This document shows, piece by piece, positions 5,004-31,603 of a stretch of 64,000 nucleotides of DNA; within the stretch, counting starts at the first letter, position 1, and every line of letters starts with the position of its first letter. The DNA is taken from the NCBI GenBank assembly GCA_965223845.1, contig CBDCXR010000004.1, positions 6,048,001 through 6,112,000 on the forward strand, in the 5' to 3' direction. The translations under genes and the position numbers were made by a program. The notes below the pieces were generated by a model. The model had not been told where the DNA came from, searched no databases, and saw only the letters and a program-made list of their open reading frames with translations. The stretch is from Planctomycetota bacterium (GTDB taxonomy: Bacteria; Planctomycetota; UBA8108; SXIK01).

Positions 5004-5988
5004 TCGCCTCATTCGACCACTCTTCACGCTCCTCTGCGCCAGCCTCGTACTCTTCGGACTTGGATGCCGGAGCACGGTGAGCCCGGACGTGAGGAGGAGC
5101 GGTTCGCTTCCGTTCGTCGTCGCGATCGAAGGTCGAGAGGGCGACGAGCACGGGCTCTCGATGATTCGACTTCACGAGGACTTCATCGCGAGCGAGGCGT
5201 TCACGTATGTGACGACGCCGAGCGACGGCATCGTCCCGGATGTCGTGATCACACTCGGCGTGAGCGGCGAGTCGTTCGGCGAGTTCACCGTCGACACTCT
5301 CGGCGCGAGCCTATCCACCACCACATGGCTCTTCCTCGGCTACGTCGGTTGGTTCTTTGCCGACCACGTCTACATGGATTCCAACTACTTCGCTGAAATC
5401 TCCGCCGCCGTTCCCGAGTCGAAGCACCGGCTCGACTTCTACCGCGATACGGTGAGCCTGAACGCCTTCGAGCTGAGTCGCTTCGACCGCGTCCCGGAAG
5501 AGAACCGATCCTGGGACGTTCTCGCCGGCGTGTTCATTCCGCCGTTCGCTCCGATGTCGATTTCGACCGAGGCTCTCTGGCGCCAGTCGGAGGAGCGGCT
5601 CGTCGTCGATGGGATCGGACGAATGGTGCGCGGGTTTCCACTCGGCTACCTCGAGCAGCACGGCTGCTACGTCGTCTACCGGCCCGATCAAGACGACTTG
5701 ATCCTCGTTGCCCGCGAGATGCCGTTCGCCGTGACGTTGACGGCCAAGGAGACGGGCTCGAAGCGCACGCTCGACCTCGAGGCGATCACGACGCGAGAGC
5801 TGCGCGACCCGGAAACGGAGGAGAGTGTCCGGCGCGATCTCTCGGAGCGCGGACTCGGGATCGGTGGAACTCCACTCGACCGTCTCTATCTCATTCCGCT
5901 CACCGATCGAGAGCTCGGCTTCGTTCGCATCGCCATCGAGCTCCAGACTTCGAGGGGCGACTTCACGATCGAGAGACCGCTCGAGTGA
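4993..5988 (+). CDS. hypothetical lipoprotein
   Basis: Signal peptide with lipobox-like FGLGC; overlaps the upstream gene end; GGAG RBS. Confidence 0.7.
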   Translation: MAADRLIRPLFTLLCASLVLFGLGCRSTVSPDVRRSGSLPFVVAIEGREGDEHGLSMIRLHEDFIASEAFTYVTTPSDGIVPDVVITLGVSGESFGEFTVDTLGASLSTTTWLFLGYVGWFFADHVYMDSNYFAEISAAVPESKHRLDFYRDTVSLNAFELSRFDRVPEENRSWDVLAGVFIPPFAPMSISTEALWRQSEERLVVDGIGRMVRGFPLGYLEQHGCYVVYRPDQDDLILVAREMPFAVTLTAKETGSKRTLDLEAITTRELRDPETEESVRRDLSERGLGIGGTPLDRLYLIPLTDRELGFVRIAIELQTSRGDFTIERPLE

Positions 5989-6161
5989 TGCGAGCTCGTT
6001 CACCTCTTCCGCCTTTCGCTGCGATTCTCGCTGTGGACGCCGCGCGTTCGTAGCGATAGCTTGGCTCCCGTTCACCGGCTGTCGGCCCGTCGCGCGGTCT
6101 CCCCGGCCGTGCGGTGCGACGTCAGCAACCCGTCTCGTGAATCGCAGTGAGCAGCGACGCT

Positions 6162-6887
6162 ATGAGTAAGCACTGGTGGAGGCGACTTTTCCTCGTCCCG
6201 AGCGTACTGGTGCCGCTCGCCGTCGGACTCGGTTCCTTCGCTTGGGGACTCGTCGCCGGCAGCTCCGCCGTCACGACGACCGTTGGGATCGCGGGCGTCG
6301 TCCTCGGAGTGGGAGCGGCGGCCTACCGCGCGATAACGAAGGGCGACCGACTCTCGAAGAAGGCTGAACGAGATGCCGCGGACGAGCGCGCCGAAGGCGA
6401 GCTCGAGGCTTTCGACCGGCTCGAGCACCGTCTCTACAACGACGACGATCCGAACACGACGGCGATGGCGCGCAAGCTGCGCGAGCTCTACGAGCGGATT
6501 CGGAAGGTACCACTGACGAGCTCCGAGACTTCCGCCGAGGTGCGAAAGCGCGCTCTTCGTCTCTGTCTCTCGTGTCGAACTTCGCTCGAGCGCACGGTTG
6601 AGCTCTACGAGGCGAGCGAGCGCATGGCGACCGAGGAGACTCGTGCAGAGACGCTCCGTTCGCGCGAGGAGCTGCTCGGCGAGATCCGTGCGAGCATGGA
6701 GAAGCTCGGCGCGACTCTCGACGAGATCGAGTCGACGCGCCTCGAGAAGCGAGTTCCCGAAAGCGGGAGCGAGGCGCTCGCGCGGGCGCGGCTCGAGCTC
6801 GACGAAGGGCTCGCGGTCGCGCGGCGGGTGGAGGAGCGGATGGAGGAGTTCCATCGTCGCTTCGATCGAACGGCGGGGCGCGAGTAG
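6162..6887 (+). CDS. hypothetical protein, two N-terminal TM helices and a coiled coil
   Basis: Hydrophobic N-terminus then a helical E/R/L-rich region; ATG 6162 (GTG 6147 is an alternative). Confidence 0.7.
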   Translation: MSKHWWRRLFLVPSVLVPLAVGLGSFAWGLVAGSSAVTTTVGIAGVVLGVGAAAYRAITKGDRLSKKAERDAADERAEGELEAFDRLEHRLYNDDDPNTTAMARKLRELYERIRKVPLTSSETSAEVRKRALRLCLSCRTSLERTVELYEASERMATEETRAETLRSREELLGEIRASMEKLGATLDEIESTRLEKRVPESGSEALARARLELDEGLAVARRVEERMEEFHRRFDRTAGRE

Positions 6888-7113
6888 CGCGCGGGGCCGG
6901 TCCGTCGCGATCCGTCCCACGGCCGGCGAGCCGGCAGGCGCGCCGTCCCTCCGATCCTCCGATTCGCTGGCATCGCGCGCTCGGGCCACCAGAATGAGGG
7001 ACGAAAGTTTCGCGAGAATTCCGACGAACCGTGCGCCCGGCTCCGTTCCATCTGACGAAGGCTGAGCACGGAGCGAAGCCTCCCGTCGTTCGAAAGCCCT
7101 TCTGGAGGCCGTC

Positions 7114-7965
7114 ATGCGGACCCTGACAACTCTCTCGCTCGTCCTCGCTCTCCTCTCGGTCGATTCCGGCGCCGTCTTCTCCCAGGACGCGGCCGGTGCG
7201 ACGGGAAGCCGGCGGTCCCGAGCTGTGGTCGACGTCGAGATCGAAGCCGGAACTGTCGTCTCGTACTTCGAGATTCTTCGCGAGCGGTATGCGCTCAATA
7301 TCCTCGTCGATCCGAGTCTCGCGCAGACATCGATCCGCATGCCCGCGGTGCGCCTCCGAAACGTCTCGCCCGAGGCGGTCGCCACGCTTCCGATGGAAAT
7401 CTCCGAGGCCGCCGATCACGGCCTTGAGGTGGTCGAGCACGACAGCATTTTCGTCGCGCGGATTCGAACCCCGGTGAGGCCTTCGCGCCGGCGATCGCAG
7501 CAGGTCGAGAATCGTATCCAGACGGTCGTGAATTCGCTGGCGCCGATGCTCCGGTCGCCGACACCCACGAAAGACGAACTCACGGAAGTCGACAAGCTCC
7601 TCCGTGCGATCGATCAGGCGGTCGAGCTCCTCGGTGCGGAGACGAAGCCGATCATCCGCGTCCATCCCGAATCGAAGATTCTTCTCATGCGCGGGGAACA
7701 AGAACCGCTTCTCTTGGCGTCCGAGGTGATCGAACATTTTCTCTCGCTTCGCGAGGAGTCCACGCTCGACGAGGAGAACCGAAAGCTGCGAGCGGAGATC
7801 GCCACCCTGAAGGCCGATCTCGAGAAATCCCAGCTCCACCTTCTCGAGCTCAATCACATGCTCCAGCTCGAGAAGGAGCGCGTGGCGGCAGCGAAGCAGG
7901 CGGCTGAGGACGCCGCGAAGGCAGCGAGCGAAGCGGTGAAGGCCGCGGCGGGACAGCGCCCCTGA
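7114..7965 (+). CDS. secreted protein with an STN/secretin-N-like segment and a C-terminal coiled coil
   Basis: Signal peptide MRTLTTLSLVLALLS; GGAGG RBS; LNILVDPSL..MPAVRLRNV segment; heptad-rich C-terminus. Confidence 0.65.
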   Translation: MRTLTTLSLVLALLSVDSGAVFSQDAAGATGSRRSRAVVDVEIEAGTVVSYFEILRERYALNILVDPSLAQTSIRMPAVRLRNVSPEAVATLPMEISEAADHGLEVVEHDSIFVARIRTPVRPSRRRSQQVENRIQTVVNSLAPMLRSPTPTKDELTEVDKLLRAIDQAVELLGAETKPIIRVHPESKILLMRGEQEPLLLASEVIEHFLSLREESTLDEENRKLRAEIATLKADLEKSQLHLLELNHMLQLEKERVAAAKQAAEDAAKAASEAVKAAAGQRP

Positions 7966-7972
7966 GGATCTC

Positions 7973-8599
7973 TTGAATCGCTCGCTCGTGAGTGAACTTC
8001 CCCCGGGATCCGGCGCGCGCGGCGCGCGCGCCGGCCGGGGATCTCAACTTTCCGATCGTGACGTGCGCACCGTCACCGCGGCCATTCACCGCGGCGACCG
8101 AGCGGCGTTCGCGCGCTTCTACGACGCGTGGTTCGACGCCGCTTTCGTTCTCGCCCGCACGGTGACGCGGCGCGACGAGTCCTTTTGTCTCGACGTAGTG
8201 CAATCGGTGATGATGAAAGTCGTCGACTCTCTCCCGCGGCTCGACTCAGCCGCGAGCCTTCGCCAGTGGATGGCGCGCGTCATTCACAACGCCGCGATCG
8301 ATCGCATCCGGGCCGAGACGCGTCGAGCCGAGCGCGAGCGCGAAGCCGCGACGGAGCGACCGGATCGCGACGCGGCGGATCCCCGGGGGGATTTGATCCT
8401 CGCCGAGGATCTCGAGTGGGTGCGGAGGCGCGTCGCCGAGTTGCCCGAGGCGGAGCGAGCGCTCGTCGAGTATCGCTTCGGGGATGGATTGACACTAGCC
8501 GAGACCGGACGGATCCTCGGGATGACGGGAAACTCGGTTCACAGCAAGCTCCGCGGCATCCTCGCGAAGCTGCGCTGGAAGGCAGGAGAAGGAAAGTGA
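7973..8599 (+). CDS. ECF-type RNA polymerase sigma factor
   Basis: GDRAAFARFY, DVVQSVMMK, WMARVIHNAAIDRIR, region 4 LPEAERALV..GLTLAETGRILG. Confidence 0.9.
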   Translation: MNRSLVSELPPGSGARGARAGRGSQLSDRDVRTVTAAIHRGDRAAFARFYDAWFDAAFVLARTVTRRDESFCLDVVQSVMMKVVDSLPRLDSAASLRQWMARVIHNAAIDRIRAETRRAEREREAATERPDRDAADPRGDLILAEDLEWVRRRVAELPEAERALVEYRFGDGLTLAETGRILGMTGNSVHSKLRGILAKLRWKAGEGK

Positions 8600-9057
8600 A
8601 CGCACCGGATCCTCGCTCGATTCGCTTGTCTCCCACCGGCGCGACGCGGCGGGAGTCCATGCGCTCGGAGCTCCTAGGACGCGTCGACCGGCGTCGGCGC
8701 CGACGCTCGGCGATGCGGGCGACGGCTTTGATCGCCGTCGTCGCGATGGCGGGTTTTGGGATGTGGCGCGGCTTCGATCGTCTCTCCGGTCCGGCCGCCG
8801 ACACGGACGGGCGTGTCGAGCTCGTCGGAGGCGATTCATCGAGCGAGGAGTCGATCACCGCGCTGGCGCCGCCCTTCGGACACTACGAGCACGTCGACGT
8901 CGAGATCATTACGAGCGATGACCCCGCGCCGCGCGAGGATCGGTACGCAAGCGACGACGAGCTGCTCGCTCTCCTTCACGAATCGGGGCACGCGGCTGGA
9001 CTCATCCGAATCGGCAACCGGGTGATCGTCGAAGGGATCGACGAGCTCGTGAAGTAG
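8596..9057 (+). CDS. probable single-TM anti-sigma factor
   Basis: GTG start overlaps the sigma stop (GTGA); Arg-rich stretch then TM ATALIAVVAMAGFGMW. Confidence 0.6.
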   Translation: MNAPDPRSIRLSPTGATRRESMRSELLGRVDRRRRRRSAMRATALIAVVAMAGFGMWRGFDRLSGPAADTDGRVELVGGDSSSEESITALAPPFGHYEHVDVEIITSDDPAPREDRYASDDELLALLHESGHAAGLIRIGNRVIVEGIDELVK

Positions 9058-9078
9058 GATCGGGATCGTCGCTCCCGA

Positions 9079-10920
9079 TCACGCCTGGTGGAGCGTGATC
9101 TGCTGGAACGGAATCCCCCAGCCGTGCTCGTTGCAGGCTTCTACCGCGATTCGCGCGAGCGCTCGCTCGACGCGCTCGTAGTACTTCGCCGCCGCGCCGT
9201 CGAGGTCCGCCTCGATTTCGTAGTCGAGTGAGGAAGCCGCGGCTTCGAGAAACGTCACCTGCACCTTCTGGATGTGCTCGGACGGAACGACGTCCGGGAG
9301 CTCGCGCTCGATCCGCTCGAGAAAGATCCGCGGGATTTCGTCCGTGCACTCGGCCTGGTGGGCGTAGTCGATGCCAAACCGGATCTCGACGCGATAGCCC
9401 TTCGAGATGTTCTGCGGCGCGGCAGCGAGGAACTCCGCGGTCGGATAGTTCTTCTCTGCTCCCCCGGGAAGCCGAACCTCGACCATCTCGGGCGTCTGCT
9501 TGATCACCTTGGCGCGCGTTTCGTCTTCGAGCAGCACCCAGTCCCCCTCGTTCGTCGGAAACCACGGCTCGTTCTCCGCCATCGGTCGCGAGTGAAGGCC
9601 GATGAGATGCCGAAGCGGGAGGCGAAGACGTCCGCCGGCCAGCGCTGGATTGACGAGTCGGGAGTAGAAGAGAAGCGTGTCGATCTGCCACGGCACGCCC
9701 TCGAACACGAGCCGCTCGCCTTCGCGGACCGACCCGAGGTTGAGGAGAAGCCGGACCTGTTCAAAGAACTGGGGGAGCATCCGCGTCGATGCCCAGCCGA
9801 CGCCCGCGAGGAAGAGAATCACGATGAGAAGGAGGGTCCAGTCTCCCATCGCCGCGAGCGCGATCATCACCGCGCCGATCGACGCGACGAAGGTGAGGAG
9901 ATAGAAGACGACGTTGAGAGCGCGAAACGGAAACGTCCGGTGGCGCTCGCGGAGTGGCCGGATCACGGTGCGGTGGACGAAGCGAAATGCGAGGAATACG
10001 ACGAGGAACGCCCCGATCGCAACCGCGAGATTGAGCCCCTTCTTGCGGAAGAACTGATCGATCGTATCGCGCGCGGTGTCGATCATGCTCGTTTCTTCCT
10101 TTCGCTCGATGAGCCGAGCGAGCTCACCCTGTGCGACGTCGCGGCCGCGACGAACCTGATCGAGACGCTTTTGCCACGATTCGCGCGCTCCTTCGAGGTG
10201 AGGGCGGAGGCCGGGCGCTGCGTTGTCGTGCAGCTCGTTCACGCCGGCGAGCGCGCGCGTCGCCTGGTCCTCGAGGCTCGTGAACCGCTCGATCGTTTCC
10301 TCGAGCGAGTGCTGGAGGCGGACGTCTTTCGTCGCGCCCTTCAGCTGGCGGATGAGCGGAGTGAGGAGGCTCTCGAGCTCGCCTTGGAGGTTGGCCTCGG
10401 ATTCTTTCGTTTCGTCCGAGAATTCACCCGCGTCGATGCCGAGGGCCGCGATTTTCTCGAAGCGCAGATCGAGCTCGTCGATCTCGAGTCGAATCGACTT
10501 CAGCGCCTCGCCGATTTCGGTGCGCTCTTGCGGAGTCGTTGCGGACGAGAGCTCCGCGCGCCTCTCGTCGAGCTCCTCGCGTTTCAGGCGAAGCTCTTCG
10601 ACGAGGGCCTCGAGCGAGGAGAAGGTCGCCTGTCGAATCTCCGCTTTCCGTGCACTTTCTGCGTCGGTCCCGTCGTTTGTCGGTGGAGATGGCGGGTCGG
10701 GCTCGTTCGGGGTCGACGCGTTCGCCGCAGCCGCCTCGGGCGCCTCGTTCGGCGCCTGCGCGCTGGCGAACGACGGCGCGAGCGTGAGCGCGAGCGCGAG
10801 CGCCGGTGCGAGAGCGAGCGGCGGGAGCCGTCGACATCCCGGTGCCGCCGACTCAAGGGACCCGAACGAGGCGGGGGCGGGAGACTTCGACGTCGACGAG
10901 ATTCGATCGTGATCCGGCAT
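9079..10920 (-). CDS. MscS-family mechanosensitive channel with an N-terminal periplasmic coiled coil
   Basis: Signal peptide, coiled coil, three TM helices, LNLGSVREGERL, FGIDY, FLEAAASSLD, IPFQQITLH. Start reassigned to ATG 10920. Confidence 0.85.
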   Translation of the reverse strand: MPDHDRISSTSKSPAPASFGSLESAAPGCRRLPPLALAPALALALTLAPSFASAQAPNEAPEAAAANASTPNEPDPPSPPTNDGTDAESARKAEIRQATFSSLEALVEELRLKREELDERRAELSSATTPQERTEIGEALKSIRLEIDELDLRFEKIAALGIDAGEFSDETKESEANLQGELESLLTPLIRQLKGATKDVRLQHSLEETIERFTSLEDQATRALAGVNELHDNAAPGLRPHLEGARESWQKRLDQVRRGRDVAQGELARLIERKEETSMIDTARDTIDQFFRKKGLNLAVAIGAFLVVFLAFRFVHRTVIRPLRERHRTFPFRALNVVFYLLTFVASIGAVMIALAAMGDWTLLLIVILFLAGVGWASTRMLPQFFEQVRLLLNLGSVREGERLVFEGVPWQIDTLLFYSRLVNPALAGGRLRLPLRHLIGLHSRPMAENEPWFPTNEGDWVLLEDETRAKVIKQTPEMVEVRLPGGAEKNYPTAEFLAAAPQNISKGYRVEIRFGIDYAHQAECTDEIPRIFLERIERELPDVVPSEHIQKVQVTFLEAAASSLDYEIEADLDGAAAKYYERVERALARIAVEACNEHGWGIPFQQITLHQA

Positions 10921-11133
10921 GACGAATGATCCTGGGCTTCGAGGGAGCGACGAGAAGTACGGGCCCCGGAGGCCGAAAGAGTAGCGCGGGACTCTCTCCC
11001 GAATCCACCCCTGGCTCCGCGTCTTCGGTTCGCACCCAGAGCCGTGGTACTCTGGGCCGTCGATCATCGCGGGCGACCTCCGTCGTTCCCGCGCCACTTC
11101 TTCGCCGCAAGCTTCTCCCGGAAAGCTCCGTCC

Positions 11134-12900
11134 ATGAAAGCTCCTCTGCGCGCCTCCGTACTGACGACTCTCTTTCTCGCCGGCGCTTCCGCCTGCGCGG
11201 CCACACCCGACGAGAAGTTCGCCTCGCTCGGGAAGCGCTACCTCGACGAGTTCACTCGACTCTCGCCGGTCTCGGCGACGCTGCTCGGCGACCATCGCTA
11301 CGACGGCGAGCTGAATCAAGTCTCTCCCGAGACGCGCGCTGCGTCGGTCGCATTCTCGCGCGAGTACCTCGAGGAGCTTCGGGCGATTCCGCGCGCCGAG
11401 CTCTCTCGGGCCCACCAGATCGACGCGGCGCTTCTCGAGCACGACCTCGAATCGACGATTTGGCGGCTCGAGCGCCTGCGTGAGTGGGAGTGGAATCCAC
11501 TTCGCTACACGTCGCTCGCGGGGAACGCGGTCTACGGCCTCGTCGCCCGAGCTTTCGCTCCGCTCGAAGAACGTCTCGCAAACGTCGCCGTACGCCTCGA
11601 GAAGTTCCCGCGTCTCTTCGAGCAGATTCGCGCCACCCTCATCCCGGAGCGCGTCCCGAAGATCCACGCTGAAACCGCCGTGAAGCAGAACCGAGGCGTC
11701 CTCAGCATCCTCTCGAACATGGTCGAGCCGGAGCTCGGCGCGGTCTCGGAGGCTCTCCGTGCTCGCTTGACGACTGCGATCGCGACGGCGCGCGATGCCG
11801 TCGAGAAGCACCAGAAGTGGCTCGAGGACGAAGTGGTGCCGAAGGCCGCCGGTGAGTTTCGGATCGGCGCCGAGCTCTACGACGAGAAGCTTGCGTTCAC
11901 CCTCAACTCGCCGCTTTCGCGGAAGGAGATTCGCGAGCGCGCCGAGAGCGAGCTCGCGCGAGTGCGCGCCGAGATGTACGAAATCTCGAAGATCGCCTAC
12001 AAGAAAGCCCACCCCTACACCGAGTTTCCCGAGCGCCCGTCCGCCGAGTACCGCCAGGCGCTCATCCGTTCCGCGCTCGAGATGGCCTACGCGGAGAAAC
12101 CCGATCGGAACCGCATCGTCGAGACCGCGAAAGAGTCGCTCGCACTCATCGAGGAATTCGTCCGCGAGCGCGATCTGATCACGCTCCTCCCCGATCCGAT
12201 CGAGATCATCGTCATGCCCGAGTTTCGTCGCGGCGTCTCGCTCGCTTACTGCGACTCCCCGGGACCGCTCGACGTCGGGCAGAAGACGTTCTACGCGGTG
12301 GCTCCGCTTCCGAAGGACTGGACGGAGACGCAGGTCCAGTCCTTTCTGCGCGAGTACAATCTCCGCTCGCTCCACGATCTGACGATCCACGAAGCGATCC
12401 CTGGTCACTACCTTCAGCTCGCGCGATCGAACCGCTACCCGTCCGTGCTCCGAGCGGTCCTCTCTTCCGGCCCGTTCATCGAGGGTTGGGCCGTCTACAC
12501 CGAACAGATGATGGCGGACGAAGGCTTTCTCGGTGGCGATCCGCTCATGAAGCTCATCGCGCGCAAGTGGTATCTCCGCGGGATCGCGAACGCTCTCATC
12601 GACCAGGCCATCCACACGGGCGGGATGACTCGCGACGAAGCGATGAAGGTGATGGTCGAAGACACCTTTCAGGAGGAGCGAGAAGCCGCCGCGAAGTGGG
12701 TGCGGGCGCAGCTCACGTCGACTCAACTCGCGACCTACTTCGTCGGCTACCTCGAGCACGTCGACCTTCGACGGGAGGTCGAAGCCGCTTGGGGTGAAGA
12801 GTTCGCGCTCAAGAAGTATCACGACACGGTGATCTCGTTCGGCTCGCCGCCCGTCAAGTACGTCCGGGCCTTGATGCTCGATCTCGAGATTCCGCGGTGA
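11134..12900 (+). CDS. DUF885 family protein (probable lipoprotein, metallopeptidase-like)
   Basis: PVSATLLGDHRYD, HEAIPGHYLQ, FIEGWAVYTE, QLATYFVG. Confidence 0.9.
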   Translation: MKAPLRASVLTTLFLAGASACAATPDEKFASLGKRYLDEFTRLSPVSATLLGDHRYDGELNQVSPETRAASVAFSREYLEELRAIPRAELSRAHQIDAALLEHDLESTIWRLERLREWEWNPLRYTSLAGNAVYGLVARAFAPLEERLANVAVRLEKFPRLFEQIRATLIPERVPKIHAETAVKQNRGVLSILSNMVEPELGAVSEALRARLTTAIATARDAVEKHQKWLEDEVVPKAAGEFRIGAELYDEKLAFTLNSPLSRKEIRERAESELARVRAEMYEISKIAYKKAHPYTEFPERPSAEYRQALIRSALEMAYAEKPDRNRIVETAKESLALIEEFVRERDLITLLPDPIEIIVMPEFRRGVSLAYCDSPGPLDVGQKTFYAVAPLPKDWTETQVQSFLREYNLRSLHDLTIHEAIPGHYLQLARSNRYPSVLRAVLSSGPFIEGWAVYTEQMMADEGFLGGDPLMKLIARKWYLRGIANALIDQAIHTGGMTRDEAMKVMVEDTFQEEREAAAKWVRAQLTSTQLATYFVGYLEHVDLRREVEAAWGEEFALKKYHDTVISFGSPPVKYVRALMLDLEIPR

Positions 12901-13003
12901 CGGCGGACTTGCGGGCGCGCGTCCCAAAACGCCTCTGTTGTCGTTGACCGGATTCTGCCGCGGCGCGTACGCTGAACGGTCGTTCACCGGCGGATGCGGA
13001 GCG

Positions 13004-21458: not shown

Positions 21459-21488
21459 TTGACAGAGACGCGAGAGCCGGCGGAGAAT
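21459..21488 (+). promoter_or_regulatory. possible sigma-70 promoter of the SIR2 gene
   Basis: TTGACA-N18-GAGAAT about 115 nt upstream of ATG 21603. Confidence 0.35.
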
Positions 21489-21602: not shown

Positions 21603-24600
21603 ATGGCCGCTGCGAAGTCTCCCGCCGTGCGGGAGTGTAAGAGTTCCCGTGATCTGATCGATCGAATTCGACGAGACGTCCGCGACGGATACGGCTTCGT
21701 TCCGTTTGTCGGAAGCGGCGTCTCCGCTCCGTCCGGAATTCCGATGGGGCAGGAATTCGACGAGTTTCTCGCGTACACGGTGTACCGAGTGCTCGCGACC
21801 GAGGAAGAGCGACCGAAGAGCCGCGGCGACGAAGCGCTTCCCCGCTGGTGCGTCCGTCGAGACGGGTGGCCGAAGTACCCCAACAGCAAGGATGCCGAGG
21901 ACACTCGGAAATGGGTTCTCGAGCGCTACCGCGAAATCTGTAGAGATCTCAAAATCGAAGTGAAGAGCGAAGGCGGCTTCGTTACGGATCTCCAAGTGAT
22001 GTCCGATGCCTTGAGCGGACTCGCTGGCGACATAGCGCTACGAGCTCGCCGTCCGCTCGTTCCGAACGTCATCGCGTCTGCGGACTGCCGCGCGCGCGAT
22101 CAAGAGCTCCGATCATTTCTTCGCGCGGTCGGGCGCGATGGTCCCGACCGTATGTTCGCCGGTCGCCACGGCTACTCTCCGACTTCACAGGACCACATTC
22201 GCGAAGCGGGCATCCGTTCGCTCTCCGATTGGCGCGCGACCCTGCATTTTCTCTCTCGCGTTAAGGTCGACGAGGACACCGGGGATCTCGTTCTCTCGGA
22301 ATCCGAGCCTTGGGTCATCGACGGATTCAACATTCACATCACGCGGGGAAAGCGCAGCAATCTCACTCACAAGATGCTCGCTCATCTTGCGACGCCGATG
22401 CGGATCCGCACCGTCGTGACGACGAACTTCGACACCCTCCTCGAAGATTCCTTCGCGCAGATCCAATCTCGAGTTGCGGTGTTCGAAGTCGGCTCGCGCG
22501 GCGAGCTGCCCGATCCGGGAACCGTGCGCGCGCAGAACTGCATCGTGAAGCTGCACGGTGGCATGCTCGATACCCGCGCGGACTTTTCGCTCGACGACGC
22601 CCCGAGCGACCGGGACAAGGCATCGTTTGCCGAATACGTCCGTCAACGAAGCCAAGCGAGCTCGAGTCGCAGCGCGCAGAGCGGTCGAACCCGGGGAATC
22701 CCGAATCACCTGATCGTCATGGGCTATTCGGGATCGGATCAGCGCTGCGTACAGATGATCAAGTACTTGCTCGATCAGGACCCAGGAGTGCGGATCTATT
22801 GGCTCGCGTTCAACGACGCGGACGTGCGCAGAGTCTCCGAGACTTTCTACGAAGACTGCTACCGGAAGGGCGGTGAGCCGAGAGTGATCACATATCGGAG
22901 CGATCGGCAGGATCTTCTTCTCTACGAGCTCTATCAGGAGCTCACTCTGTCCCTACCTGCCGGCGGATTTGCCTACCAGTTCACCCACAAGATTCCGCCC
23001 GAGCGGCGCCTCGAGTTTGCGGCTTCCGACGCCAAGATGAACAAGGTAGGCGACGCGATCGTGGAGATCCTCACCAACTCCCAGACCCGCGACGCCCGGC
23101 TCGCCGAGCTCGAGGAGCGAGCGGACGTTCACATCGAGCGAGTGCCGCGGGATCGTGACGATGACACGACGCTGTCGCTGGAAGCAGACGGGCGATCCGA
23201 TCTCGCGTCCGCTATGCGACACGCGTTTCGAAAGTTGCGATCGAAGCATCATCGCCAGTGTATCTGGCTCGAGCTTCAGGACTACGCGAGTCCGCACTAC
23301 GTCTACACCGAACTCCTCAAGGTGATCTCGGTGAGGCTCGGGCTCTTCCAGCTGGAGCACGTCGTTCTCGCCCCCGACGAGAGCGATCGAACTCGAGTCG
23401 GCTACGGAAAGCACCTCAAGAAGGCGATCGAGTACTTCGGAATCCAGCCGGAAGCTTGGGTCGTATTCCTCTATGGCCGGAGCTGTCCCGGCGGCTGTTC
23501 CGGTTGGGACAACCGACCGTGGGGTCGCGACGAATACGATCGATTCAAGGAACTGCGCGAGGCGCTCGGTGCGGCGGGGATCCGTGTGGTGTACATGCCG
23601 CTTCGGGATCATCGCCGAGTTCGCAACGAGGCGAAGCTCTTGTTCGTCGACCGACTCGGGCCCATCGTGAAGGCTCAGGCTACTCTACCGTCGAAAGATG
23701 AGTTTCCGGTCGACCGGTACAAATCCGAAGAAGAGCGGAGACGAGAAGAGAAGGAGTGGAGAGCCGAGCAGGTCGGTTTCCTCGACACTCAGCGAATCCT
23801 CGATTCGAACTCGCAGGAGGATACGGTCCTCCAGGGGAATCCGTTCTTGATTCCCAAGCACTCCGTCGATGCAACCGTTTCCAAGTGGAAGAACGTCCCG
23901 CGCGGGGGACCGACGACCTACGAGTCGATCGTTCACAGAATCGTCGATGAATGGCTCACCGTAAGATCGGCGGGCAGCGAGTACGACGAGCGACTGAAGA
24001 AGATTCAGTTTCTCTATGCCGTGACGCTCTTTCGACAGTCTCGGCATACGAGCGCATTCTTTTCGGAGGCCCTCTTCCCTTGCCCGCACCGATTCAATGC
24101 GGACGGGGAAGACAACGACTGGGTGCGCTTCGACAAAGTACGAAAGTGGATTCGAGATCTCGAGCGCGAAGCGGTCTTTTATCACAAACCCGGCGGCTAC
24201 GCGTGGAAGTACCGTGACATGCGCCTCGGGATCCAGCGCCTGATCGAAGGCATGGAGAACGTCTGCTTGAACGAGCCGGCGGAGTCGCGCGAAAAGAGCC
24301 GGTTCGTTCGCTTCATGGGGCAGCGACGCGCGCGGACGCACCTCTGGATCGGCCACTGGTACCTCAAGGCGTTTTACGCGACCGGGCACGCGATTCCGAT
24401 TATCGAATCCCTCTACCATCGGCTTCAGTGCGTGCGCTATTCGCCGTACGCGAAACCGCCCGTGCTCGCACCGACGAGCTCGAATCGCGAAGAGCTGTAC
24501 CGCTACCGCCTTCAGCTTTTTCGCCTCGCGATTCTTGCGATGGTGAAGACGAGTCGCATGGCTCGGCCGTGGCTCAAGTTCTGGCTCAACGATCCGGGTG

Positions 24601-26273
24601 AGAGCTCGCTCTTCGGCGAACAGGCGAAAGCGGGCCGGCGCATCGTAGAGGCTGCCCGGGAGAAGCTGGAGGAAATGGCGAAAGCCGAGCCGGCGCTGGT
24701 TGCCGAGGGTCGTACGCTCAAAGGATTGACCGAATTGCTCAGGGACGAGTTCGATACGCTCGGCGGATCGCTGAGGGCTGAAGCCGGGAAGCGAGGCGGG
24801 AAGAAGTTCCTGCTCGACATTCCTCCCCGCGAGCCGGGAGAACCGGAGCGTCCCGAAACCACGACGGATCTGAGATTCGACGCCGAGATTCTCTGCAGCC
24901 CCGACTGGCGCGGGCGATTCAGAGAGCGGCTGAAGGCGTTCAAGCTCGAGCCGACCGACCCTGGTCTCGAGAACGTCGTCGAGATCATCGAGCAACACGA
25001 AGGCGCGATTCGACGCGCACCGAACACCGGCGAGGAATCCGCGGCGAGGCGCCGCGGGATCTCAGAGACTCTCGACGAGCGGCTCGTCGCGATCAAGTCG
25101 AAGTGGATCCTCGCTTGCGGAGGGCGTCAATCCTACGTCTCTCAGGCGGTGCAGACGATCAGCGAGTTCGCATACCTCCACGTGAAGCAAGCGAAGCTTC
25201 TCGATCACAGCGCCGGGTCAAACGATGCCGACCCGGAAGCGCGCGCTCAGATTCGTGCGCTCTGGGTCGAGGTAACGGCGCTCTGCAACACGGCGATGGA
25301 TCTCCTCAATCATCTTCATCCGGCGTACCTGAACGTCGAGATCGAGGAACACATCAAGTGTCAGACGATGTACGGGCTCGCGCTCGGTCACCTCGGCCGA
25401 TTCTTCGAAGCCCATCGCCGACTCAACGAGGCCGGGGCGGTTCTTTCGAAGATGGCGAATACTCTCGAGAGCGAAGAGTTCGCCGTCATCAAGCTTCGTC
25501 GCGCCGAGGTCTTTCTCTGCGAAGCCGTTGCCGTCCGCGAAGCTCTGAACGGAGTCGAGACGAGCGAATCGGAGGCGGAGCTCGAGTCTCTGCAGGCTTC
25601 TGCACACCCGCAGTTCGCGAACCCCGTCGGCAAAGCCGTGGCCGCAACTCGGAAAGTGGTCAAAGCTCGAAAGAGGCTAGAAGAGATAGAGAAAGAACGC
25701 TTCCAGCGATCGGATGCCGAGAGTGCGATCGAGCGCCAGGAGCAGAGGATCGTCGCAGGAAAGGAGGAGCGCCGGCGCGCGATCGAGACACTCGAGCGAA
25801 TCCACTATGCGAAGCTCGATGACGCCTGGGTCGCGCTCGAGGCCGCCGAGCAGCTCCTCTCCGGCCGCAGCCATTCGTCGCTCTGGTGGGGTCGACTGTT
25901 TGCGCTCAAGCTGCGAGTTTACGGGGAGCACCAAGACCGTCGATTGGTCGCGCGGTACGAATCCCTCGCCTTCCGGCAGCGCATTCAGCACGACCACGTC
26001 GTGCATCAACTTTTCGACAAGGGCGTCCTTGTGAGCCCGTCGGACCCGTACCGGCGTCTGCGCCTCCTCGACTACTATTTGAAAGCGGTGGAGAAAGTCA
26101 CGGGGAGTTGGAAACCGGGGCGACTCGAGCGAGCCATCGAGCTCTGGGGATCCATCGCCACCTCGATTCGGCGAGAGCCCGTCCTTCGTGCCCCCCGTTC
26201 GCCGATCCGCAATTATCTGGGCCGTATGCGGAAGGCGATCCAGGCCTGGAAGCAGAGCGACGAGACGGGGTGA
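21603..26273 (+). CDS. large SIR2-domain protein (SIR2 - degenerate STAND/wHTH - helical TPR-like), putative antiphage NADase
   Basis: FVPFVGSGVS, TTNFDTLLE, VKLHGG, LIVMGYSGSD; C-terminal helical repeats such as YGLALGHLGRFFEA. Confidence 0.85.
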   Translation: MAAAKSPAVRECKSSRDLIDRIRRDVRDGYGFVPFVGSGVSAPSGIPMGQEFDEFLAYTVYRVLATEEERPKSRGDEALPRWCVRRDGWPKYPNSKDAEDTRKWVLERYREICRDLKIEVKSEGGFVTDLQVMSDALSGLAGDIALRARRPLVPNVIASADCRARDQELRSFLRAVGRDGPDRMFAGRHGYSPTSQDHIREAGIRSLSDWRATLHFLSRVKVDEDTGDLVLSESEPWVIDGFNIHITRGKRSNLTHKMLAHLATPMRIRTVVTTNFDTLLEDSFAQIQSRVAVFEVGSRGELPDPGTVRAQNCIVKLHGGMLDTRADFSLDDAPSDRDKASFAEYVRQRSQASSSRSAQSGRTRGIPNHLIVMGYSGSDQRCVQMIKYLLDQDPGVRIYWLAFNDADVRRVSETFYEDCYRKGGEPRVITYRSDRQDLLLYELYQELTLSLPAGGFAYQFTHKIPPERRLEFAASDAKMNKVGDAIVEILTNSQTRDARLAELEERADVHIERVPRDRDDDTTLSLEADGRSDLASAMRHAFRKLRSKHHRQCIWLELQDYASPHYVYTELLKVISVRLGLFQLEHVVLAPDESDRTRVGYGKHLKKAIEYFGIQPEAWVVFLYGRSCPGGCSGWDNRPWGRDEYDRFKELREALGAAGIRVVYMPLRDHRRVRNEAKLLFVDRLGPIVKAQATLPSKDEFPVDRYKSEEERRREEKEWRAEQVGFLDTQRILDSNSQEDTVLQGNPFLIPKHSVDATVSKWKNVPRGGPTTYESIVHRIVDEWLTVRSAGSEYDERLKKIQFLYAVTLFRQSRHTSAFFSEALFPCPHRFNADGEDNDWVRFDKVRKWIRDLEREAVFYHKPGGYAWKYRDMRLGIQRLIEGMENVCLNEPAESREKSRFVRFMGQRRARTHLWIGHWYLKAFYATGHAIPIIESLYHRLQCVRYSPYAKPPVLAPTSSNREELYRYRLQLFRLAILAMVKTSRMARPWLKFWLNDPGESSLFGEQAKAGRRIVEAAREKLEEMAKAEPALVAEGRTLKGLTELLRDEFDTLGGSLRAEAGKRGGKKFLLDIPPREPGEPERPETTTDLRFDAEILCSPDWRGRFRERLKAFKLEPTDPGLENVVEIIEQHEGAIRRAPNTGEESAARRRGISETLDERLVAIKSKWILACGGRQSYVSQAVQTISEFAYLHVKQAKLLDHSAGSNDADPEARAQIRALWVEVTALCNTAMDLLNHLHPAYLNVEIEEHIKCQTMYGLALGHLGRFFEAHRRLNEAGAVLSKMANTLESEEFAVIKLRRAEVFLCEAVAVREALNGVETSESEAELESLQASAHPQFANPVGKAVAATRKVVKARKRLEEIEKERFQRSDAESAIERQEQRIVAGKEERRRAIETLERIHYAKLDDAWVALEAAEQLLSGRSHSSLWWGRLFALKLRVYGEHQDRRLVARYESLAFRQRIQHDHVVHQLFDKGVLVSPSDPYRRLRLLDYYLKAVEKVTGSWKPGRLERAIELWGSIATSIRREPVLRAPRSPIRNYLGRMRKAIQAWKQSDETG

Positions 26274-28207: not shown

Positions 28208-29932
28208 CTAACGCGCCGCATCGTGCCCCTCGCCGGAAGGAGACGCAGTCCCGTCCGGTCCGCAGAGTACCGTCGCGATTTCCACCGCCGTTCGAGGCGG
28301 CGGCGCCGTCGGCTCTCGCTCTCTTCGCTTCGCGGCCGCCTCTCGCCGGAGAAAGATCTCCTCGACGCGGTCGAGGCGTTCGTAAAGGACTCTCCATGCG
28401 GCGCCGTCATCGATCGCCGCAATTCTCGCGAGCCGAAGACCTTCGGACCGCTCGCCGAGCTCGAAACGCTGTTTCGCGGCTCGGAGGAGATGGCGCGCCC
28501 GCGCCGCGCCGCGCGCGTGTCCGGCCGCGTAGAGATCACCGCGGATCGCGCGTTCGAGCGCAGTCGATTCGTCTGCTCTCCGCCGCGCTGACGCGAGTGC
28601 GCGTTCGTCGACCGCTCCGCGCGCGGTCAAGCACTCGAGGAGCGCGATGTCGTAGTCGCTTCGGCGATCGGTGACCCCGTTCGGTTTGGGCAGATCTTCG
28701 CACGCGACGGCCTCTCCCCGCGCGAGTCGGACGCGCGCCGAGAGCAGCGTCGCCGCGTTTCGCTCACGCGTCGAAAACGAACCGCGCGCGAGAATTTCTT
28801 CCGCGGCGAGAAACTGGCGGCTCTCGACGAGTGCTCGCGCGAGGAGGAGCGCGCCGGCACCGCGCCCGCTTCGCCGGTAGAGTTCGAGCCATCTCGCCGC
28901 TCGCGCGGGTTCGTCGAGATCTTCGAGGACGATCTGGGCGAGCCGCGGTGCCCACATCGCGACGAGACGTGAATCACTCCGGCAGAGAGACTCGAGCTCT
29001 CGGGCGGCAGAGTCACTTTCGCCGCGGAGTGCTCGCGTCATCGCACGCCAACCGCGTACGTCGGGATGCGCGGACCCGATCGCTGCGCCGAGCCGTTCGA
29101 TTTGCTCGAGCGCTTCCGGTGCAGCGTACGACGCGACGAGATTCTCGATGAGAAACACGATGGCGCCCGGATCCGCGCTCTGTGCGGATTCACTCAAGAC
29201 CTCCCGCGCACGCTCCATCTGCCCGCGGAGCGTGAACGCGCGCGCGATCGTCCTCGCGGCGATCGCCGAGCGGCCCAGCTCGCTCTCGAGCTCCGCTCGT
29301 CGCTCCTCTCCGTCCCCTCGCTCGAGCTTCCGCGCGAGCGTGAGAAACGCCGCGGCGGCGCCGTCGCTTTCCGTCCGGCTCCTTTGAAGGCGCGCGAGTG
29401 CCGCGGCGAGGCGAAGATAAACCCAGCGATCGTAGGGATCGTCCGTGAGAAGCTCCGCGGCGAGCGTCACCGCGCGTCGCGACTCCCCGTTCTTTTCGAG
29501 TGCGAGTAGGAGCTCTTTCCGCGCCGATTCTCGTTCGCGCGGCGTCGCCGCGAGCTCGATCGCCCGGGTGAGGTACCGCTTCGCCTTTGCGTACGCTCCG
29601 CGCGCGCGCAATCCGATCCCGAGCGCGGAGAGTCCGTCGAAGGAATCCGGCTGCGATTCGATCCAGGCGCGTCCGTAGCGTTCGAGCGCAGCCGCATCGC
29701 GCGATTGTCGCGCCCGTGCGAGCACCGCTCGGAGCGTTTCCTCTGCGGCGGGTTGTTGCCAAAACCGCTCGGTCCCGAACTCGAGCGCGCGGAGATCGGG
29801 GTCGATCTCGACGGCGTTTGCCGTCGCCGGGGACGGTTGCTTCGCCCCGCGGTCGCAGGCGACGATCGTCGCGGAGACGAGAAGCGCCGCGACTCCCGCG
29901 CGCGCGGCGACCCACCGAACCGTTTCGGCCAT
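28208..29932 (-). CDS. TPR-repeat lipoprotein
   Basis: AAGGAG RBS, lipobox IVAC, TPR-like ALGIGLRARGAYAKAKRYLTRAIEL. Confidence 0.7.
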   Translation of the reverse strand: MAETVRWVAARAGVAALLVSATIVACDRGAKQPSPATANAVEIDPDLRALEFGTERFWQQPAAEETLRAVLARARQSRDAAALERYGRAWIESQPDSFDGLSALGIGLRARGAYAKAKRYLTRAIELAATPRERESARKELLLALEKNGESRRAVTLAAELLTDDPYDRWVYLRLAAALARLQRSRTESDGAAAAFLTLARKLERGDGEERRAELESELGRSAIAARTIARAFTLRGQMERAREVLSESAQSADPGAIVFLIENLVASYAAPEALEQIERLGAAIGSAHPDVRGWRAMTRALRGESDSAARELESLCRSDSRLVAMWAPRLAQIVLEDLDEPARAARWLELYRRSGRGAGALLLARALVESRQFLAAEEILARGSFSTRERNAATLLSARVRLARGEAVACEDLPKPNGVTDRRSDYDIALLECLTARGAVDERALASARRRADESTALERAIRGDLYAAGHARGAARARHLLRAAKQRFELGERSEGLRLARIAAIDDGAAWRVLYERLDRVEEIFLRREAAAKRREREPTAPPPRTAVEIATVLCGPDGTASPSGEGHDAAR

Positions 29933-30022
29933 GCTCCTTGCCGACGGGCGGGCGGGCTTCCCTCCGATCCCCATTCGGTCCTCTCCTCACTCTCCCTCGC
30001 TGGCAGTGTTCGCGCCCGCCGT

Positions 30023-30038
30023 CGGCACGAACATTGCG
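30023..30038 (+). promoter_or_regulatory. sigma-54 (-24/-12) promoter
   Basis: cGGCACGaacaTTGCg: GG-N10-GC, close to the TGGCACG-N4-TTGC consensus, about 85 nt upstream of ATG 30123. Confidence 0.65.
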
Positions 30039-30122
30039 TCCGCTTGCCGCTCTCCGAGCGGATGTTACTCTTCGACGGGCAGGAGCGGATATCGGAACTT
30101 CGCGACGAAGGAGATCAGATCG

Positions 30123-30314
30123 ATGAGTCGTTGTGTCGAGCCCGATTGGCAGGCTCTCTACGCGGGGATTCAGCGCTCGCGCGCGACGGAGTCGGGTGAA
30201 GATCTCGACTCTGAAGAGCAGGCGTGCCCGAACTGCGTCGGCGGCCTCGTCTCCGACGACGAGGTGTGTCCGATCTGCAGCGGGTACGCGGTCGTCAAGG
30301 TCGTCGCAGTGTAG
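30123..30314 (+). CDS. 63-aa zinc-finger microprotein
   Basis: AAGGAG RBS; CPNCVGG...CPICSG (DnaJ-like CxxCxG pair). Confidence 0.7.
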   Translation: MSRCVEPDWQALYAGIQRSRATESGEDLDSEEQACPNCVGGLVSDDEVCPICSGYAVVKVVAV

Positions 30315-30658
30315 ATCGAATCGGATTTGAGGCCCGGCAGTGTGGAGGGAGTCTTCGCTCGCGCGCGTGCGGCCGCGGAGCGGAGGGCACTCGTCCCTCG
30401 GGGAGAGAGGTGGTTGGCGACCCGAAGCGCGCCTTTTTTTGCGCGCCGGGACTCGAGCCTGGATCAGCGGGATGCTCGAGTCCGCCGACCCGAGTGGTAC
30501 CCGTGCCCTCCGCTCCGCGGCCGTCGCCGCGCGTCGCGATTCGCCTCGGCAGCCGCGGTGCCTCGACGAAAGTCGGGACGCCGCGGCTCGCGTTCCTTTT
30601 GGTGGGCCGCGGAAGTGTCGTCGACTCTGAGGAAAGGGACGACACTCGACGGCAGGCG

Positions 30659-31603
30659 CTATCCTCGCCACCGCCGACAGAGATCCCTCGCCGCATTCGG
30701 CCACTCCGGGAACTGGAACTCGAATCCGGACTCGATCAAGCGCGACGGCACGACGCGACGACTCTTCAAGATCAACTCCGTCTCCGTGCGCAGGAAAAAC
30801 GCACCGAGCTCCAGCATCGGGACCCGTGCCGGCAGGCCGAAGCCGATCCCCCACGCTGTGCGGAGCGCACGCATGAACTCTGCGTTCGGGACGGGATGGG
30901 GCGCCGCGAGATTGACGGCGCCGCTCAGCGCCGAGTGATCGACGAGCCAGTAGATCGCGCGCACGAAGTCGTCGCCGTGGATCCACGAGACGAACTGACG
31001 GCCGTCGCCGCTTGCGCCGCCGAGCCCGAAGCGGACGAGCCGGAGGAGGACGTCGAAGATCCCGCCGCGGTCGGGGCTCATCGTCATCGCCGAGCGGAGA
31101 AGCACCCGGCGCGTCGCCGGCACGTTAGCGTCGGTCGCGGCGCGCTCCCACGCCTTCGCGACCTCGATGCTGAACCGCCACGTCTCGGGTGCGCCCGTCT
31201 CCCCACCGCCGATCATCCCCGTTTCTTCATCGTTCGGCGCGTCGAACCGGTGCGAGTAGATCGTCGCGGTGCTCGCCTGGAGCCAGACGCTCGGCGGGCG
31301 GGAGGATTTCTCGATCGCCTCGCCGATGGCGCGAGTCGAGCGGACCCGTGACTCCAGAATCTCCCGACGGTTTCGCGCGTGGTAGCGACAATCGACACTG
31401 CGCCCCGCCAGATTGATGACGACTCCCGCGCCGTCGAGCTCGCGGAGCCACTCGCCGCAGCTTACGCCGTCCCAGTAAAGAGTACGCCACGGCCGCCGCT
31501 GCGGCCGCCGACTGAGGACGACGATCTCGTGCCCGTCGCGGACGAACGCACGAGCGAGCAGAGTACCCACTTGTCCGGAGCCACCGGCGAGGACGATCTT
31601 CAT
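30659..31603 (-). CDS. TIGR01777-family NAD-dependent epimerase/oxidoreductase (DUF1731)
   Basis: MKIVLAGGSGQVG, VINLAG, GDGRQFVSWIH, SRRVVPSRL..GFEFQFP; AAGGAG upstream. Confidence 0.9.
   Translation of the reverse strand: MKIVLAGGSGQVGTLLARAFVRDGHEIVVLSRRPQRRPWRTLYWDGVSCGEWLRELDGAGVVINLAGRSVDCRYHARNRREILESRVRSTRAIGEAIEKSSRPPSVWLQASTATIYSHRFDAPNDEETGMIGGGETGAPETWRFSIEVAKAWERAATDANVPATRRVLLRSAMTMSPDRGGIFDVLLRLVRFGLGGASGDGRQFVSWIHGDDFVRAIYWLVDHSALSGAVNLAAPHPVPNAEFMRALRTAWGIGFGLPARVPMLELGAFFLRTETELILKSRRVVPSRLIESGFEFQFPEWPNAARDLCRRWRG

Follow-up and report, generated by a model that had tools for sequence, protein, structure and literature searches.

A single-gene SIR2 protein with a predicted STAND-type module that lacks the P-loop, from a Planctomycetota genome

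The window analysed here is a stretch of 64 kb (64,000 nucleotides) from the genome of a Planctomycetota bacterium (assembly GCA_965223845.1, contig CBDCXR010000004.1). Within it we studied one gene, which is an ATG-started open reading frame (ORF) of 1556 aa plus stop on the forward strand (Table 1). A first-pass annotation, made from the letters alone, had described its product as a stand-alone sirtuin with an apparently dead core of the STAND type (ATPases of signal transduction that carry numerous domains); the ORF and all the strings quoted there, including LEADGRSDLAS, CIWLEL, WVVFLYG, FLYAVTLFR, DLEREAVF and GGYAWKYRDMR, are present. A word-seeded search found 30 full-length relatives of 1242–1893 aa at 26–41% identity, annotated with SIR2_2 only. 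Since these relatives exist and since the central region by itself already has matches in 459 cluster representatives, sequence comparison shows that the ORF is a genuine gene and no chance frame. The protein combines an N-terminal SIR2 head, a central module that is predicted to consist of a nucleotide-binding domain (NBD), a helical domain (HD) and a winged-helix domain (WHD), and a C-terminal solenoid that resembles tetratricopeptide repeats (TPR). This architecture as a whole is well supported, and we hold it with high confidence.

The SIR2 head carries the sole Pfam domain match in the protein (SIR2_2, PF13289, at residues 270–408, E 3.6e-10, 40.5 bits compared to a gathering cut-off of 24.5). 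The motifs GSGVS (37–41), TTNFD (273–277, with N275 and D277), KLHG (316–319, with H318) and GYSGSD (374–379) had been reported as intact; GSGVS and GYSGSD stand for the NAD-site patterns GxGxS and G-x-S-G-x-D, and TTNFD and KLHG for TTNxD and KxHG with the Asn and His taken as catalytic. This holds, as the Pfam match is above the cut-off and the motifs are conserved in relatives and align to a solved structure. N275, D277 and H318 are invariant in the aligned relatives of two alignments (20/20 and 29/29). When the family profile was compared to the Protein Data Bank (PDB), the nearest solved chain was the 'Sir2 superfamily protein' 8jkz/8in8 (E 6e-9), and the alignment to 8jkz_A pairs TTNFD with TTNFD, KLHG with KIHG and GYSGSD with GYSGRD. 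The PADLOC matches (E<=1) are confined to the SIR2 part (residues 243–447), with the pAgo-associated SIR2 (Aga_SIR2-PNTD, 7e-13) as the best, followed by PDC-S65 and ThsA. NCBIfam gave nothing better than E 0.08 for the protein, and the SIR2 domain matched no deacylase model (CobB was at E 0.09). For EfAvs5, N141 of the SIR2 domain is described as catalytic, and the catalytic role of residues of the N275/H318 type rests on such related SIR2 NADases (PMC11897194). By analogy to these, the SIR2 head would be an NAD+ hydrolase.

The distance between GSGVS and TTNFD is 232 residues. An insertion of about 200 aa had been proposed to follow the first motif; the insertion exists, but its excess over 8jkz/8in8 is only about 120 profile positions (profile 82 to 243 compared to chain 81 to 119). 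Among 30 sequences, the insert has a length of 124–284 aa and a mean pairwise identity of 26%.

For residues 505–1000, an AlphaFold2 (AF2) model was built with an alignment of 29 sequences (alignment A2), and it reached a mean predicted local distance difference test score (pLDDT) of 80.6 and a predicted template modelling score (pTM) of 0.82. The order of elements in the model is strand 525–530, helix 534–547, strand 552–557, two helices, strand 619–624, a helix, strand 661–665 and a long helix. This NBD-like core is followed by a helical domain, a hairpin (859–868) and further helices, and residues 681–770 are variable and modelled with low confidence. We compared the model to 48,161 representative chains using VIA-align (VIA). 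The best matches were MalT (Z 13.0–13.7; for 8bob_D, Z 13.0, root-mean-square deviation (rmsd) 4.1, 288 aligned) and 6mfv_A, a STAND protein whose sensor is built from TPR (Z 12.9, rmsd 3.7, 269 aligned), both spanning model residues 1–496. The next row was a short unrelated helical match at Z 8.4. A second look with VIA gave Apaf-1 (Z 9.6, 282 aligned, chain 127–524), the NB-ARC of NRC1 (8.8), NRC2 (8.2), NLRP9 (7.4), BrxC (8.2) and ORC/Cdc6 (about 8, covering NBD and lid only). Apaf-1, NRC1 and NRC2 likewise match over model residues 1–496. In Foldseek, nearly all of the top 50 chains were ORC/Cdc6 or STAND chains, none of them at E<=1e-3. The feature neighbours in the ESM Atlas (at 0.88–0.89) are NB-ARC/nSTAND, AAA_16/NPHP3_N, NACHT and KAP clusters, which we use as leads only. 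From the predicted model, we conclude that residues 505–1000 form a STAND-type NBD-HD-WHD module. The central region had been expected to have a P-loop NTPase-like fold in spite of its missing Walker residues, and the structure comparison to MalT, 6mfv and Apaf-1 agrees with this at the level of the model.

Also the C-terminal part fits the earlier description of a winged helix that is followed by helical repeats. An AF2 model of residues 985–1556 (alignment A3, 28 sequences; pLDDT 79.7, pTM 0.79) is all-helical, with variable residues of low model confidence at 1001–1086. In VIA, model residues 103–572 (protein residues 1087–1556) match the TPR of LGN (Z 17.8, rmsd 4.0, 260 aligned), and further matches are Pins (Z 16.8), Rap of phage phi105 (16.2), NprR (14.9) and PlcR (14.3). 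These scores exceed the level that helical models commonly give in VIA. Foldseek of the C-terminal model returned no match at E<=1e-3, and domain III of MalT (1hz4) was in its list at a probability of 0.90.

Table 1. Features of the SIR2 gene and its flank, with positions in the window
Feature	Position	Strand	Basis
Whole ORF (P0001), 1556 aa	21603..26273	+	ORF call, translation, relatives
Sigma-70-like promoter match TTGACA-18-GAGAAT, 115 nt 5' of the ATG	21459..21488	+	Consensus match only
SIR2_2 NADase-type domain, residues 1-466	21603..23000	+	Pfam PF13289, 8jkz_A alignment, family alignment
Family-specific SIR2 insert, residues ~61-240, with conserved G88-W89-P90 and D209-W210-R211	21783..22322	+	Family alignment, profile compared to 8jkz
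Predicted P-loop-less NBD-like alpha/beta core, residues 521-680 (strands 525-530, 552-557, 619-624, 661-665)	23163..23642	+	AF2 model, VIA matches
Putative Walker A site remnant D529-G-R-S-D533 (family D-G-x-S-G), loop of 3 residues joining strand 525-530 to helix 534-547	23187..23201	+	AF2 model, family rows
Strand-2 motif C-I-W-L-E-L-Q-D-Y, residues 553-561	23259..23285	+	Family rows
Putative Walker B strand and Gly-rich loop W-V-V-F-L-Y-G-R-S-C-P-G-G-C-S-G-W, residues 619-635	23457..23507	+	Strand order, spacing, family rows
Predicted helical domain and winged helix, residues 771-1000 (LFRQSRH 809-815; hairpin K862-P-G-G-Y-A-W868; helices RARTHLWIGHWY...)	23913..24602	+	AF2 model, VIA, family alignment
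Predicted TPR-like alpha-solenoid, putative sensor, residues ~1087-1556	24861..26270	+	AF2 model, VIA matches

To count motifs at the former nucleotide site, all family sequences were aligned to the A2 model; 175 rows cover the core, of which 158 are distinct, and the counts that follow are out of these 158. None of them has a Walker A motif (GxxxxGK[ST]) at the aligned P-loop site, so the loss that had been noticed in this one protein is family-wide. After strand 1, the consensus is hhhh-D-G-x-S-G, where D is found in 93 rows, G in 70, S in 81 and the last G (the G533 position) in 131, and the length of this segment is fixed in 157 rows. Of the 162 proteins, 13 contain the loose pattern [GA]x4GK[ST] somewhere, scattered between positions 173 and 1483. 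Furthermore, G.{4}GK[ST] is missing from 77 of the 78 SIR2-bearing ORFs in the loci, the exception being a separate canonical SIR2-NB-ARC-TPR gene in locus L062.

Other positions around the site are highly conserved. In strand 2, W555 (156), E557 (150) and D560 (146) stand in a motif that by eye resembles I-G-W-Y-S-L-D-E-G-D of MalT at the same spacing. Strand 3 ends with Y624 (139), G625 (131) and R626 (156), and the loop that follows reads N, G, P, G630 (157), G, C632 (121), any residue, G634 (131) and W635. The resulting Gly-rich motif Y-G-R-N-G-P-G-G-C-x-G-W is nearly invariant across the family. W640, five residues past the stretch 619–635, is present in 155 rows, and strand 4 reads V-V-Y-x-P666 (149) and is followed by R671 (134).

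Strand 3 (619–626) would correspond to the Walker B strand, because of the order of strands and helices in the model, the MalT-like spacing and a collinear hhalign alignment that is not significant. By eye, the spacing from W61 to D129 of V-I-D-D in MalT is 68 residues, and here it is 70 from W555 to G625. In the non-significant alignment to AAA_16 proteins, D-G-x-S-G pairs with G-x-G-K-S and the Gly-rich loop is an insertion at D-D-L-H-W-A-D. At this strand, which is placed by order, spacing and that alignment, the family reads hhhh-Y-G-R and not hhhhD[DE]. We also considered L-E-L-E-D (556–560) as Walker B with F-L-Y-G-R as the sensor-1 strand, which is less likely as the MalT spacing and the count of helices between the strands favour the other mapping. 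With either mapping, the P-loop has been lost, and the site, instead of having eroded, has been rebuilt and is conserved. As Y624, G625, R626, G630 and W640 are present in 131–157 of the rows, the former nucleotide site looks like a rebuilt pocket. The core had been called 'catalytically dead'; the loss of Walker A stands, but a conserved replacement motif occupies the site, and thus the label 'dead' may be wrong.

The family is large. Using the A2 profile (residues 505–1000) on 1.84 billion representatives, we found 459 at E<=1e-3, of which 376 reach E<=1e-10 and 230 reach E<=1e-30; it thus comprises at least 459 clusters at 50% identity. Among the best 150 of the 459 representatives, to which the details of this search refer, the module lies at about residues 450–1100 of proteins of about 1500 aa. 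A TTNFD-like motif is present in 149 of 162 family proteins. Ten of the other 13 are without the N-terminus and may be fragments or true SIR2-less forms. Three proteins carry 700–900 extra N-terminal residues. P0150 (1852 aa) and P0161 (1995 aa) read T-T-N-P-D or S-T-N-P-D and have K-V-N or K-I-N in place of K-L-H-G, by which the catalytic His is lost; in P0160 (2008 aa), neither a TTNFD-like motif nor a SIR2 match was found. P0161 has a weak TIR_2 match at 1805–1901 (24.4 bits, under the cut-off of 28). These three forms may represent an effector swap with a dead SIR2.

When each species is represented by one genome, relatives are encoded in 203 stretches. Among 80 of these, 35 match past residue 1439 and are counted as full-length loci: 16 from Verrucomicrobiota, 12 from Planctomycetota, 5 from Pseudomonadota and 2 from Myxococcota. 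Verrucomicrobiota and Planctomycetota are the phyla in which the family is concentrated. Of 301 genomes sampled from the phylum of the source genome, 6 match at E<=1e-10; three of these, the source genome included, do so at the full-length level, and none of the 16 genomes from the same class as the source genome matches. As judged from these sequence matches, the distribution is patchy and extends across four phyla. Among the 30 full-length proteins, mean pairwise identity is 44.7% in the SIR2 core, 31.1% in HD/WHD, 27.2% in the NBD-like core, 25.2% in the TPR-like part and 10–13% in the linkers. Such a gradient would be expected for an immune receptor whose effector is fixed and whose sensor diversifies.

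Several genomes contain more than one related gene. In the source genome, the A2 profile finds only the studied protein and one distant paralogue at E<=0.01. The paralogue (P0163, L083:5014-9813; 1600 aa) is encoded outside the window at about 6170014-6174813 of the same contig, about 100 kb downstream, between pyruvate:ferredoxin oxidoreductase genes. It is a very divergent copy of the same architecture (SIR2_2 E 2.8e-6, motifs T-I-N-F-D and K-L-H-G-G, no Walker A) and collinear with the studied protein (SIR2 23% identity, E 3e-16; WHD region 6e-4; TPR region 1e-3). In a metagenome-assembled genome (MAG) of Mariniblastus sp., two full-length members (L007 and L011) lie about 860 kb apart on contig CBDFNH010000008.1, with integrase-core and ISL3 transposase genes on the flanks of the L007 copy. 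In a 'Candidatus Angelobacter' MAG (L062), a canonical SIR2-NB-ARC/NACHT-TPR gene with G-P-G-G-T-G-K-T (5822-9358) is directly followed on the same strand by a gene for a 1410-aa SIR2 protein without Walker A (L062:9866-14095). This locus therefore contains the two versions as a tandem.

We next turn to the genomic context. The upstream neighbour of the SIR2 gene is a dockerin-domain gene that ends at 21368 and leaves a gap of 234 nt, in which one sigma-70-like site was found compared to 0.7 expected in shuffles; this site is a consensus match only. The downstream neighbour is a convergent FG-GAP/ASPIC gene. The G+C content is 0.61–0.63 over about 18–27 kb of the window and 0.65–0.68 on both sides, and no tRNA gene was found within the 64 kb. 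Neighbouring genes in the window are of planctomycete type (PSCyt2/PSD1, DUF1501, MatE, Pyr_redox_2, dockerin, FG-GAP). Furthermore, we surveyed two genes on each side in 29 full-length loci, using 104 of the 105 proteins (one was omitted for its size). No neighbour gene recurs among the 104 neighbours of the 29 loci, and therefore the gene works alone or with unlinked partners. This agrees with the earlier view of a stand-alone gene, as neither the window nor the 29 loci contain a conserved partner. Transposase or integrase genes adjoin the family gene in four loci (L007, L013, L025, L033). Defence-like neighbours occur in four to five loci overall: Mrr_cat in L006, AAA_15/AAA_21 in L017, three helicases including DEAD+MZB in L018 and a SIR2_2+TPR protein in L013, with an RHS protein beside the family gene in L033.

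The window contains additional genes of multidomain proteins. A TIR_2 gene (25-672, +, E 1.5e-19) is directly followed by an nSTAND1/AAA_16 gene (672-5000, +), whose product of 1443 aa has a C-terminal FGE-sulfatase domain; this pair is a canonical two-gene module of the type of NOD-like receptors (NLRs; NOD, nucleotide-binding and oligomerisation domain), 16.6 kb upstream of the SIR2 gene. Two large Ser/Thr kinases are encoded at 49585-54342 (+; Pkinase, many TPR repeats and Malectin, 1586 aa) and 60095-62167 (-; Pkinase and DJ-1/PfpI). ORFs of 1302, 598 and 528 aa at 9082-12987 (-), 29193-30986 (-) and 6274-7857 (-) have no Pfam match at the thresholds used.

Among known systems, Avs5 (AVAST type 5; EfAvs5 and PaAvs5) is closest in layout. 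It has the same order of a SIR2_2-type NADase, an NBD-HD-WHD and C-terminal helical repeats in one polypeptide, where the likeness of the NOD is at the level of the fold. SIR2-dependent NAD+ depletion and activation by assembly have been published for Avs5; EfAvs5 forms filaments of SIR2/NOD, needs K379 and D426 and is triggered by a phage protein, and PaAvs5 needs G362 and K363 (PMC11897194, PMC12931631). By analogy, the expected logic would be binding to the sensor, followed by assembly and NAD+ hydrolysis. The two differ in the nucleotide site, as Avs5 has an nSTAND3-type NOD that binds ATP and needs Walker A and B for defence (PMC11897194, PMC12931631), whereas the SIR2 family has no Walker A at the aligned site and no Walker B at the putative one. 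Furthermore, the studied protein has no nSTAND3, NB-ARC or NACHT match in Pfam at E<=1, the fold of its NOD is predicted to be nearer to the MalT/6mfv type than to NB-ARC-like chains, and its SIR2 domain bears the extra insert. According to the model, what sets the protein apart from every characterised Avs is a NOD in which the P-loop is missing, as is an acidic Walker B at the expected place. Because the defining Walker A motif was looked for and is absent, the protein is not a member of Avs5 or of the STAND proteins in the strict sense; it is Avs5-like in layout and, by analogy, probably in logic.

Other systems share single parts. MalT and 6mfv, STAND NTPases with sensors of the TPR/SUPR type, are structurally the closest to the NBD-HD-WHD along its whole length, and in both a TPR-like sensor follows. 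However, MalT has G-Y-G-K-T and V-I-D-D where the SIR2 protein has D-G-R-S-D and L-Y-G-R, with no significant profile similarity, and it has a DNA-binding output instead of a SIR2 head. The iSTAND and iSTAND2 modules are inactive STAND modules in conflict systems, described as third components of MoxR-vWA ternary systems (PMC8195603, Kaur et al., eLife 2021). The concept of a STAND module with eroded motifs for binding nucleoside triphosphate (NTP) that is kept for sensing or assembly is similar (PMC8195603); compared by their description, they differ in that the module here is fused to SIR2 and that no MoxR or vWA gene is present in the window or among the 104 neighbours in 29 loci. DSR1 and DSR2 (defence-associated sirtuins) are SIR2 NADases encoded by a single gene, which recognise structural proteins of phages through a large helical sensor at the C-terminus (PMC12803255). 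The protein had been placed between Avs and DSR. Its Avs5-like layout supports the first part but not the second, as Dsr1-type proteins, according to PMC12803255, join SIR2 directly to an Avs7-type TPR sensor without a STAND module, whereas the studied protein has a STAND-like module. In addition, the Dsr1 model gave no PADLOC row at E<=1, and the Dsr2 models match only about 50 SIR2 residues (271–321; E 0.033 and 0.15, the former in PADLOC, and 10 bits in NCBIfam compared to a cut-off of 1400). By sequence, the closest SIR2 domain is that of the SIR2-APAZ proteins of short prokaryotic Argonaute (pAgo) systems (8in8/8jkz; PADLOC Aga_SIR2-PNTD). This match covers the SIR2 core only, and the studied protein has neither an APAZ region nor a pAgo neighbour. 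Overall, PADLOC, Pfam and NCBIfam contain no full-length match, so that the check for an already described system came out negative. Our literature search, which did not extend to the supplementary STAND clade lists of PMC12803255, turned up no account of a fusion between SIR2 and a STAND module without Walker motifs.

Taken together, we lean slightly towards the reading that the gene encodes a single-gene, NLR-like immune receptor of Avs5 layout, that is, an abortive-infection NADase whose NOD switches in a non-canonical way without canonical nucleotide binding. We infer NADase activity, the role in defence, the trigger, oligomerisation and nucleotide independence by analogy to the systems above. 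According to this model, the sensor and the NOD would keep the SIR2 head inactive until an invader (phage) protein binds the solenoid and the NOD is released; self-association would then gather the SIR2 domains, NAD+ would be hydrolysed and the infection aborted. The pocket may be occupied by R626 and the Gly-rich loop, which would replace the nucleotide from within the protein, or the two may bind another ligand. Since the P-loop is missing and no acidic Walker B stands at the expected place, the switch would be unable to use ATP in the canonical way.

Several observations weigh against this reading. Mutants of Avs5 in Walker A or B lose defence, so that a Walker-less NOD may work otherwise or not as a switch. 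We found no link to STAND proteins at the sequence level, and the evidence for the fold consists of predicted models and range-level alignments. The Pfam STAND models (NACHT, NB-ARC, AAA_16, nSTAND1-6) do not match at E<=1, and the same library detects 13 AAA_16 proteins in the host genome and the nSTAND1 protein in the window. Searching PDB sequences with the A2 profile gave nothing meaningful (best PEX14, E 0.31, and GIMAP7, E 1.1, both in low-complexity linkers). With hhalign, the central profile reached a probability of 0.16% against residues 1–438 of Escherichia coli MalT and of 0.05% against the canonical SIR2-NB-ARC-TPR protein (L062:6959-9358); for 30 AAA_16 STANDs of related genomes, it was 1.1% at P 0.049 in local mode (mact 0.05), and global mode returned nothing. 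The placement of Walker B at 619–626 is deduced from strand order, spacing and the non-significant alignment, and the strongly conserved stretch of R626 and the Gly-rich loop may still serve to bind a nucleotide. Furthermore, tblastn with residues 505–1000 found no match in plasmids and phages, and the viral contigs of IMG/VR gave only generic matches to the SIR2 core (residues about 250–410) in which the module was not found. Apart from the mobile-element, RHS and defence-like genes named above, the neighbours are housekeeping genes, and there is no clear defence island.

How the receptor would switch leaves room for different versions. Tentatively, it may be a nucleotide-free NLR, where the P-loop has been deleted and the pocket refilled by R626 and the Gly/Cys-rich loop, which would act as a stand-in for the nucleotide or as a sensor of a different small molecule, such as an NAD-derived or phage-made nucleotide. 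The same receptor might instead still depend on a nucleotide: R626, G-P-G-G-C-x-G-W and D-G-x-S-G would then form a non-canonical phosphate site for ATP or GTP, for NAD or ADP-ribose (ADPR), or for a phage-made nucleotide, in a rewired NOD. Gly-rich loops beside a Rossmann-like strand commonly bind phosphates, and few parts of the protein are as well conserved as this site (R626, G630, W640 and G533 with 156, 157, 155 and 131 of 158 rows). Moreover, EfAvs5 provides a precedent, as it binds ATP as a cofactor only, without hydrolysing it (PMC11897194). Nevertheless, the site has neither the Lys nor the Ser/Thr pair typical for binding phosphate and Mg2+, no acidic Walker B lies at the place expected for it, and no known nucleotide-binding family was matched by sequence in Pfam or with the A2 profile in the PDB. 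We regard a rewired nucleotide site as rather unlikely.

Alternatively, the protein might not be immune at all but a regulatory or signalling sirtuin, a deacylase or ADP-ribosyltransferase of environmental bacteria with large genomes, whose NOD and TPR serve as a scaffold for a cellular partner. The mostly housekeeping neighbours, the missing PADLOC system match and the closest structural match to MalT, a transcription regulator, are in line with this, as are the second divergent copy and the 13 canonical AAA_16 STANDs in the genome, which are found similarly in bacteria with complex signalling. We consider it improbable nonetheless, because the head belongs to SIR2_2 and its best matches are defence NADases and not deacylases, the Pfam scan reveals neither a DNA-binding domain nor any further output domain, the family is spread patchily across phyla, and conservation falls from effector to sensor. 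Lastly, a decaying, non-functional relic of an Avs5-like SIR2-STAND gene that has lost its ATPase is very unlikely: although the loss of Walker A and B resembles inactivation, and such Avs5 mutants lose defence (PMC11897194, PMC12931631), at least 459 clusters at 50% identity have open full-length frames, the motifs that replace Walker A and B hardly vary, with a loop length fixed in 157 of 158 rows, and the catalytic SIR2 residues are retained.

In the current view, STAND and NLR receptors, whether from animals, plants or bacteria, depend on a bound nucleotide for switching and assembly. Here, a clade of at least 459 clusters has retained the predicted NLR layout and an intact head of NADase type but has a nearly invariant motif in place of the P-loop and of the putative Walker B site. 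If the role in defence is true, an NLR switch exists that is nucleotide-independent or differently liganded. A single-gene, NAD-depleting system would then be added that current defence catalogues miss, as PADLOC 2.0 matches the SIR2 part only. It would also concern the phage defences of Verrucomicrobiota and Planctomycetota, the main phyla of the family, which are little studied. Should the nucleotide-free version hold, STAND-type oligomerisation would be gated by the ligand alone, and the clade would be a natural experiment on the role of the nucleotide in NLR switches.

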